From Eledone cirrhosa (taxonomy: Eukaryota), in NCBI GenBank assembly GCA_964016885.1, contig OZ024756.1:8184001-8248000 (forward strand): a DNA stretch of 64,000 bases. The letters are read 5' to 3'. The notes under the pieces are model-generated. The model was not told the DNA's origin. It searched no databases and saw only the letters and a program-made list of their open reading frames with translations. Shown here piece by piece: positions 46,700 through 49,546 of the stretch. Every line of letters begins with the position of its first letter. Positions within the stretch are counted from its first letter, which is position 1. The position numbers were made by a program, and so were the translations under genes.

Positions 46700-46902
46700 C
46701 TCAAGCAGTTCATTGTCCCGAATTAATTGTTTCAAATGTTCTTGTAACTCCTCCTCATCTTCACTCTCGGAGCTACTCTCCGAACTGCAGCTAATTTCAT
46801 CTAAATCAGAATCTTGCCTTAAATAGTTCAGTTCTACAATTTCCTGGTGTAGTCGTTCAATTTCACTCTGTTCTGTTTCAATTTTCTGATGAAGTTCATC
46901 AC
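46700..46902 (-). CDS. RALBP1: RalBP1 homolog exon (GDELHQKIETEQSEIERLHQEIVELNYLRQDSDLDEISCSSESSSESEDEEELQEHLKQLIRDNELLE)
   Basis: tttcag acceptor and GAG|gtatgt donor; 203 bp, phase 1 to 0, in frame with both neighbouring exons. Resembles RalBP1 'EIERLRAEI...SSESESESEDEEELQ..L..L...NE.LE'. Confidence 0.9.
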
Positions 46903-46920
46903 CTGAAACAACAGTCAACA

Positions 46921-49546
46921 GTTTAGACATGAGCTAACAAGTTCATCACCTGAAACAACAGTTTAGACATGAGCTAACAAGTTCATCACCTGAAACAACA
47001 GTTTAGACATGAGCTAACAAGTTCATCACCTGAAACAACAGTTTAGACATGAGCTAACAAGTTCATCACCTGAAACAGTTTAGACATGAGCTAACAAGTT
47101 CATCACCTGAAACAGTTTAGATATGAGCTAACAAGTTCATCACCTGAAACAGTTTAGACATGAGCTAACAAGTTCATCACCTGAAACAGTTTAGACATGA
47201 GCTAACAAGTTCATCACCTGAAACAACAGTTTAGACATGAGCTAACAAGTTCATCACCTGAAACAGTTTAGACATGAGCTAACAAGTTCATCACCTGAAA
47301 CAACAGTTTAGACATGAGCTAACAAGTTCATCACCTGAAACAACAGTTTAGACATGAGCTAACAAGTTCATCACCTGAAACAGTTTAGACATGAGCTAAC
47401 AAGTTCATCACCTGAAACAGTTTAGATATGAGCTAACAAGTTCATCACCTGAAACAACAGTTTAGACATGAGCTAACAAGTTCATCACCTGAAACAACAG
47501 TTTAGACATGAGCTAACAAGTTCATCACCTGAAACAACAGTTTAGACATGAGCTAACAAGTTCATCACCTGAAACAGTTTAGACATGAGCTAACAAGTTC
47601 ATCACCTGAAACAACAGTTTAGACATGAGCTAACAAGTTCATCACATGAAACAACAGTTTAGACATGAGCTAACAAGTTCATCACCTGAAACAACAGTTT
47701 AGACATGAGCTAACAAGTTCATCACCTGAAACAACAGTTTAGACATGAGCTAACAAGTTCATCAGCTGAAACAGTTTAGACATGAGCTAACAAGTTCATC
47801 ACCTGAAACAACAGTTTAGACATGAGCTAACAAGTTCATCACCTGAAACAACAGTTTAGACATGAGCTAACAAGTTCATCACCTGAAACAACAGTTTAGA
47901 CACGAGCTAACAAGTTCATCACCTGAAACAGTTTAGACATGAGCTAACAAGTTCATCACCTGAAACAACAGTTTAGACATGAGCTAACAAGTTCATCACC
48001 TGAAACAACAGTTTAGACATGAGCTAACAAGTTCATCACCTGAAACGGTTTAGACATGAGCTAACAAGTTCATCATCTGAAACAGTTTAGACATGAGCTA
48101 ACAAGTTCATCACCTGAAACAACAGTTTAGACACGAGCTAACAAGTTCATCACCTGAAACAACAGTTTAGACATGAGCTAACAAGTTCATCACCTGAAAC
48201 AACAGTTTAGACATGAGCTAACAAGTTCATCACCTGAAACAGTTTAGACATGAGCTAACAAGTTCATCATCTGAAACAACAGTTTAGACATGAGCTAACA
48301 AGTTCATCACCTGAAACAACAGTTTAGACATGAGCTAACAAGTTCATCAGCTGAAACAGTTTAGACATGAGCTAACAAGTTCATCACCTGAAACAACAGT
48401 TTAGACATGAGCTAACAAGTTCATCACCTGAAACAACAGTTTAGACATGAGCTAACAAGTTCATCACCTGAAACAGTTTAGACATGAGCTAACAAGTTCA
48501 TCACCTGAAACAACAGTTTAGACATGAGCTAACAAGTTCATCACCTGAAACAGTTTAGACATGAGCTAACAAGTTCATCACCTGAAACAGTTTAGACATG
48601 AGCTAACAAGTTCATCACCTGAAACAACAGTTTAGACATGAGCTAACAAGTTCATCACCTGAAACAACAGTTTAGACATGAGCTAACAAGTTCATCACCT
48701 GAAACAACAGTTTAGACATGAGCTAACAAGTTCATCACCTGAAACAGTTTAGACATGAGCTAACAAGTTCATCACCTGAAACAACAGTTTAGACATGAGC
48801 TAACAAGTTCATCACCTGAAACAACAGTTTAGACATGAGCTAACAAGTTCATCACCTGAAACAGTTTAGACATGAGCTAACAAGTTCATCACCTGAAACA
48901 ACAGTTTAGACATGAGCTAACAAGTTCATCACCTGAAACAACAGTTTAGACATGAGCTAACAAGTTCATCACCTGAAACAGTTTAGACATGAGCTAACAA
49001 GTTCATCACCTGAAACAACAGTTTAGACATGAGCTAACAAGTTCATCACCTGAAACAACAGTTTAGACATGAGCTAACAAGTTCATCACCTGAAACAACA
49101 GTTTAGACATGAGCTAACAAGTTCATCACCTGAAACAGTTTAGACATGAGCTAACAAGTTCATCATCTGAAACAGTTTAGACATGAGCTAACAAGTTCAT
49201 CACCTGAAACAACAGTTTAGACACGAGCTAACAAGTTCATCACCTGAAACAGTTTAGACATGAGCTAACAAGTTCATCACCTGAAACAACAGTTTAGACA
49301 TGAGCTAACAAGTTCATCACCTGAAACAGTTTAGACATGAGCTAACAAGTTCATCACCTGAAATAACAGTTTAGACATGAGCTAACAAGTTCATCACCTG
49401 AAACAACAGTTTAGACATGAGCTAACAAGTTCATCACCTGAAACAGTTTAGACATGAGCTAACAAGTTCATCACCTGAAACAACAGTTTAGACATGAGCT
49501 AACAAGTTCATCACCTGAAACAACAGTTTAGACATGAGCTAACAAG
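46921..49546. repeat. 37/40-bp tandem array containing the RalBP1 intron/exon junction
   Basis: Unit gtttagacatgagctaacaagttcatcacctgaaac(aac)a; aagttcatcacctgaaacaaca is identical to the real junction at 46892-46913. Confidence 0.95.

Follow-up and report, generated by a model that had tools for sequence, protein, structure and literature searches.

Tandem repeats that span an exon-intron boundary were named 'mirages' in the amphioxus Adh3 gene, and have been described in the globin genes BflGb6 and BflGb9 as well as in troponin C and PGBD5 (PMC3087553, PMC3902484). The mirage of BflGb6 repeats an acceptor, that is, the 3' end of the intron together with the 5' part of the exon, and the mirage units covered in that account measure 10-160 nt (PMC3087553). 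In the cases presented there, amphioxus mirages leave splicing undisturbed and the boundary units are excluded from homogenisation (PMC3087553). In the human F7 gene, the 37-bp VNTR of IVS7 carries pseudo-donors that are reported to be functional but silent by position (PMC1557585).

In the window, by which we mean the whole 64,000-nt stretch of DNA that was analysed, an array of this class lies on the minus strand, 5' of the true acceptor of a RalBP1 exon. The array is a mirage minisatellite: the repeat runs head to tail, its unit is of local origin and spans the boundary of the host exon along with the splice signal (the acceptor AG is kept in 66 of 67 decoy units), the boundary unit is the authentic site, which the mRNA uses (contig 17 of run X4), and the interior displays concerted evolution from which the boundary unit is excluded. 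Most likely, local duplication and repeat turnover produced this locus-specific minisatellite, and the array is probably neutral, as splicing picks the copy adjoining the exon. The features are, from 5' to 3' on the minus strand:

51851 to 51940, minus strand: upstream RalBP1 coding exon of 90 nt with a phase-1 donor at 51850 (7.6 bits, 43rd percentile); a short exon without a tblastn match, recognised by eye from its translation, which is like that of O. vulgaris and O. sinensis RalBP1.
46941 to 49545, minus strand: mirage minisatellite with 67 decoys, of which 42 measure 40 nt and 25 measure 37 nt (TRF, unit parsing and multi-copy depth in DNA reads).
46903 to 46940, minus strand: unit of the true acceptor, 38 intron bases, in the ancestral form with a 7-nt tandem duplication and branch-like A residues at -28 and -21 (parsing; gapless in contig 31 of run X5, from organism B, as well as in contigs of runs X1 and X3).
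46700 to 46902, minus strand: RalBP1 coding exon of 203 nt, rich in purines and GAA from base 12 on, with a donor at 46699 of 9.7 bits (translation, RalBP1 match, both ends spliced in X4 contig 17).
45375 to 45605, minus strand: last RalBP1 coding exon, to the stop codon (joined to 46700 in X4 contig 17).

Splice sites were scored with matrices from 82 acceptors and 74 donors, called by rule and without RNA in 85 kinase exon matches of the same genome; these 85 are the short-exon ones fetched from 138 kinase matches, with the 30 best (mostly long or intronless) and other long-frame rows left out. The exon at 46700-46902 identifies the host gene, sharing 99% identity with the RalBP1 sequences of Octopus sinensis and O. 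vulgaris (33 matches among 124 candidates). Other RalBP1 exons are 62-99% identical to O. vulgaris, which makes the host a different octopod. The window corresponds to G000:C17:8184001-8248000 in a genome of 3.0 Gb, and the mapped part of RalBP1 extends over about 116 kb, of which 88% is tandem repeat; the array-bearing intron is 4948 nt long, or 2.3 kb without the array. Other repeats surround it. Most of a 100-kb RalBP1 intron consists of a satellite with a 46-nt unit, repeated about 1980 times over 91 kb with 94% matches, which runs from 54271 to 64000 of the window and on to G000:C17 ~8329364, and whose unit resembles part of a dispersed repeat in nearby introns; a related 48-nt array occupies 50895-51823, 28 nt past the donor at 51850. 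Elsewhere in the window, a 16-18-nt satellite of about 21.7 kb (18043-39774) flips its orientation at 37881-37884, producing a very large inverted arrangement with a sign change of the GC skew, and a GC-richer stretch at 40450-41450 resembles, by eye and on the plus strand, a retrotransposon gag-like remnant.

A sequence-only reading of this DNA had proposed some 65-70 decoy 3' splice sites upstream of the RalBP1 exon, each consisting of the real acceptor plus the first 11 exon bases, with an extra 7 nt confined to the genuine acceptor. Unit parsing bears out all three points. We parsed 67 decoy units from 49545 to 46941, and TRF reports a 40-nt period with 67.7 copies and 94% matches over 46916-49546. 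Each decoy joins the 3' part of the RalBP1 intron to the initial 11 exon bases; the extra 7 nt, one half of a tandem 7-mer at 46922-46909, occur in the terminal unit only, whose AG at 46904-46903 directly precedes the exon, and the parsed array holds no 47-nt unit inside. The context of the decoy AG is AG|GT in 61 units, AG|AT in three and AG|CT in two, with the AG gone in one (n=67). The decoys carry 13 substitutions in all (0.5%), traced to seven events, variant blocks are repeated at units 29 and 44 and again at units 55 and 63, and three units are without the A of the CTCAT branch candidate. Such low divergence with recurring variant blocks is what unequal exchange would be expected to leave in an array that is young or has been homogenised. 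A two-unit query returned 35 matches, all at the RalBP1 locus and thus at one candidate place, although a lack of further matches is no proof of rarity.

Contigs of four sequencing runs (X1, X3, X4 and X5) were placed on 45350-46990, with run X2 and the RAD-seq runs X6-X8 left out. Runs X1 and X3 are DNA-like and come from one sample, possibly the source of the assembly. Their single-copy contigs, of depth 4-7, match exactly through the true acceptor and end at the array edge at 46945, while a contig of the 37-nt variant reaches a depth of 124 in X1 and 57 in X3, or about 18 and 13 times single copy; the assembly has 25 such units, 18 of them identical. Since this one variant alone stands at 13-18 times single-copy depth, the array is present in the reads and, on the evidence of short reads, does not stem from the assembly. 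That the array is artefactual or much shorter in the animal would be helped by the inability of short-read contigs to span it and by the possibility that the X1-X3 sample is the assembly's own source; given the read depth and the patterned mix of unit lengths and substitutions, we lend this explanation hardly any credence.

Run X4 is of unrecorded kind, and a spliced contig marks its RNA content. Contig 17 (2717 nt, depth 78.5) covers 46903-46700 and then 45597-45350, enters the exon at 46902/46903 and is unbroken over both junctions; the eight bases between 46700 and 45597 equal the length of 45605-45598. Contig 17 represents an mRNA spliced at the true acceptor, and the spliceosome's bypass of the decoys, postulated from the letters alone, is thus seen in one RNA run. 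An mRNA spliced to a decoy would need to cross 46916-46903 into the exon. The depth of 27.0 in the X4 bin 46890-46944 can be rebuilt from the mRNA contig, which contributes 14 bases, and the array contig, which contributes 28 bases common to all units, and accordingly no contig linking array to exon was seen in this run, in which contigs drop rare forms and decay is presumably active. The array sequence itself has a depth of 13.8 in X4, which, being counted over bases common to all copies, amounts to about 0.2-0.3 per copy as compared to 78.5 for the mRNA and fits pre-mRNA or DNA traces. Since the RNA evidence is one run of contigs with decay presumably active, decoys may be used at a low level.

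What decoy use would entail follows from the reading frames. Joined to 46902, the exon ending at 51851 continues in an open frame onward into the last exon at 45605. Joined to any of the 66 decoy CAGs, it meets a stop after 11-14 codons, as the sequence-only reading had predicted for the copies it considered, and use of the second AG of each unit yields a stop after three codons. Every decoy-derived stop lies more than 200 nt upstream of the last exon's junction, and under the usual junction rule a stop well before the last junction makes a transcript a substrate for decay. Use of units as in-frame microexons was also considered and rejected: any three units keep the frame, but stops occur within 18 codons in every frame.

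These frames are the starting point for a functional reading, in which the array acts as a length-dependent dial: a fraction of transcripts would be spliced to decoys and destroyed by nonsense-mediated decay, and the RalBP1 level would fall as copies rise. It can draw on 66 near-consensus acceptors that all lead to stops far upstream of the last junction, on the presence of array sequence in X4, and on human tandem repeats, some of which are described as altering splicing by their length (PMC10078293). Yet the X4 depth per copy is a small fraction of that of the mRNA, the array is seemingly absent in a 95% identical relative (organism B) and hence shows no conservation, and the mirages so far described in the literature at hand come without aberrant mRNA (PMC3902484). 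We regard the dial as decidedly improbable. The same low standing applies to its extended form, according to which the array could expand only after the 7-nt deletion had weakened the unit and its length now sets RalBP1 dosage among octopuses via decoy-derived decay. Were decoy use to rise with array length, this would offer a simple mechanism by which tandem repeats tune gene dosage.

The sequence-only reading also gave each unit an AG|GTGATG and likened it to a recursive-splicing (ratchet) site; working as such, it would remove the intron stepwise. Recursive-splicing sites are found in long introns, are conserved and regenerate a strong donor. The ratchet sites of long introns in Drosophila and vertebrates and the RalBP1 array are alike in the juxtaposition AG|GT, present here in 61 of 67 units, but the array differs in having a weak regenerated donor, a short intron, no conservation and dozens of copies derived from the start of a coding exon. 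At 2.6 bits, the regenerated donor ranks below essentially all of the 74 sampled donors (percentile 0) and has T at +5, where 55 of the 74 have G; the unit's own donor scores 4.2 bits (4th percentile). The intron is just 4.9 kb long, 2.3 kb of it outside the array; the GT is the coding start of the exon itself, ordinary sequence for Gly-Asp-Glu that is conserved in O. vulgaris; and the array is probably lineage-specific, organism B showing no second unit. We therefore reject recursive splicing, to which we would assign only a very slight chance.

The organism B data also speak to the history of the 7 nt. A 724-nt contig of run X5 aligns gaplessly over 46655-46939 with 15 differences in 285 nt, and within the 114 nt beyond the match this one contig contains no second unit; judging from it, the array is probably absent in organism B. 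As organism B has the 7 nt and shows no second unit, the 7 nt are ancestral and the decoys deletion derivatives. This reverses the earlier view of the 7 nt as an addition to the true site, and a newly gained mark on that site is ruled out. The left flank and the unit end have CTT in common at the breakpoint, with AGGTG nearby, which fits a slippage duplication of 47 nt. We infer that the array began with such a 47-nt duplication between short microhomologies, that loss of one copy of the tandem 7-mer then gave the 40-nt unit and loss of a further 3-mer the 37-nt unit, and that expansion by slippage or unequal crossover followed, with the boundary unit left out of homogenisation.

Could the 7-nt difference account for acceptor choice? 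As judged by score, the true acceptor (9.4 bits, 43rd percentile) and the 40-nt decoy (9.2 bits, 39th percentile) are nearly alike, and the 37-nt decoy is weaker (6.3 bits, 13th percentile). Branch-like A residues are located at -28 (CTCAT), -21 (CTAAA) and -13 in the true site, at -21 (CTCAT) and -14 in the 40-nt decoy, and at -18 and -11 in the 37-nt decoy, so that the CTAAA candidate moves from -21 in the true site to -14 or -11 in the decoys. The AG-free stretch shortens from 29 nt (16th percentile of 82) to 22 nt (6th) in the 40-nt and 19 nt (4th) in the 37-nt decoy, percentiles that carry a slight bias because the calling rule penalised nearby AGs. The branch motif distance profile of the 82 acceptors has no sharp peak. 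Human branch points, as summarised in PMC10078293, lie 19-37 nt from the AG. Because CTCAT at -21 in the 40-nt decoy falls within this human range and the scores are 9.2 versus 9.4 bits, loss of the 7 nt is a mild handicap and insufficient as an explanation.

Two Beclin-1 acceptor arrays of the same genome (L136-L137; G000:C20:7216005-7219121 and 7227949-7231266) provide a comparison, the first with a 51-nt unit in at least 61 copies and the second with a 62-nt unit in about 53. In the 51-nt array the terminal unit is like the decoys and bears no distinguishing mark, and the terminal tract of the 62-nt array is 2 nt shorter than that of its decoys; thus, to judge from their sequence, arrays appear able to expand without a distinguishing insert. 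The proposal that the 7-nt difference is the main discriminator, with a decoy branch point too near the AG and only a weakened unit able to expand harmlessly, is in keeping with the lack of a 47-nt unit inside the array, the shortened AG-free stretch and CTAAA spacing, the low score of the 37-nt decoys and the loss of the A of the CTCAT candidate in three units. It is at odds with the 40-nt decoys, which keep CTCAT at -21 and score close to the true site, and with the Beclin-1 arrays, which appear to have expanded with units equal to the terminal acceptor or with a longer tract; moreover, a distinct boundary unit is presented as a normal product of array turnover in the amphioxus work (PMC3087553). 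As the main cause of acceptor choice we think the 7-nt difference unlikely.

Repeats at exon boundaries are not confined to these loci. A 47-nt donor-side array of about 32 copies lies 3' of an exon (L122:3433-4966) that we take to belong to USP10. A fasciclin array was looked for among 11 fasciclin loci and not found. Local boundary-spanning duplicates were seen at none of the 82 kinase acceptors and at 3 of the 74 kinase donors, one of which is borderline, as compared to 2/1500 acceptors and 1/1500 donors in cross-locus controls; within RalBP1, they occur at two of nine acceptors and none of eight donors. Per site, boundary duplicates are uncommon, yet they turn up repeatedly in this genome with its wealth of repeats; no acceptor bias was seen. 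The second of the two RalBP1 cases is an old, diverged two-copy duplication on the minus strand (L011; G000:C17 ~8341190-8341350) with about 75 aligned nt, 22 of them intronic and about 50 exonic, the upstream copy of which is without the AG; it appears to be a decayed mirage. Two kinase exons also have repeated donors: one has a 362-nt duplication that includes the donor (L072; G000:C22:284716 region), and in the other, copies of the donor stand at +367 and +489 in a degenerate minisatellite (L100; G000:C1:322459190 region).

Why, then, would the last copy win? It is well established in splicing that exon definition favours the nearest acceptor. The true site alone has an exon behind it, whose donor of 9.7 bits lies 203 nt away and whose body is rich in GAA: the density of GAA is 11.7 per 100 nt in exon bases 12-71 versus 2.5 in the array. 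We propose that the exon, through its strong donor at 46699 and its GAA-rich body, draws U2AF/U2 to the closest acceptor on its upstream side; the decoys offer just 11 exon bases and weak donors, and the 7-nt loss would add a small handicap. As a safety net, nonsense-mediated decay would clear any leaked decoy transcripts, whose stops lie over 200 nt short of the last junction. Exon size alone cannot exclude the nearest decoys: exons that began there would measure 250-330 nt, and a length of at least 250 nt was found for 15 of the 73 exons sampled. Of the options left by the sequence-only reading, neutrality is the one favoured, the true acceptor being used in the spliced contig found and no decoy use being seen.

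Selection is the remaining consideration. Three of the seven substitution events in the array fall on AG|GT as compared to 0.7 expected (P 0.026, post hoc), a hint of selection against decoys; selection could also explain why the 7-nt-deleted form alone expanded. Splice-signal events elsewhere number 2/14 in the Beclin-1 62-nt array, 0/18 in the Beclin-1 51-nt array (60 of about 250 units) and 1/11 in the USP10 array. Selection against decoys via splice-signal mutations was rejected on the pool of all four arrays (6/50 versus 4.0 expected).

Taken as a natural minigene, the locus places 66 acceptors of nearly equal quality before the one in use and offers two unit lengths and a defined 7-nt difference, ancestral at the true site; the effects of position and of branch-point spacing on the choice of a 3' splice site can thereby be told apart. 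Our literature search found no paper on cephalopod mirages; while the class itself is known, the cephalopod record may be new in print. The amphioxus mirages and the RalBP1 array are alike in their boundary copies, the acceptor type (BflGb6), a unit length within 10-160 nt and a divergent boundary unit. Normal splicing, as described for amphioxus, may be a further likeness: no aberrant mRNA from the decoys was seen here in one run of contigs, in which rare forms are dropped and decay was unblocked. They differ in host, a cephalochordate versus a mollusc, and in copy number, two to seven in the amphioxus globin and PGBD5 examples versus 67 in RalBP1. Unlike the amphioxus mirages, the RalBP1 array has only 11 exon bases per unit, and all of its decoys lack the 7 nt of the true site. 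The F7 VNTR repeats a donor (5-9 copies), whereas the RalBP1 array repeats an acceptor (67 copies); because a 5'-to-3' scan from the intron meets the RalBP1 decoys first, the F7 scanning model is not directly transferable. The two are nevertheless alike in the 37-bp scale of the unit, in a boundary element that lies over the exon/intron junction and in identical pseudo-sites that could work in principle yet are silent, and in both it is the exon-adjoining site that wins.
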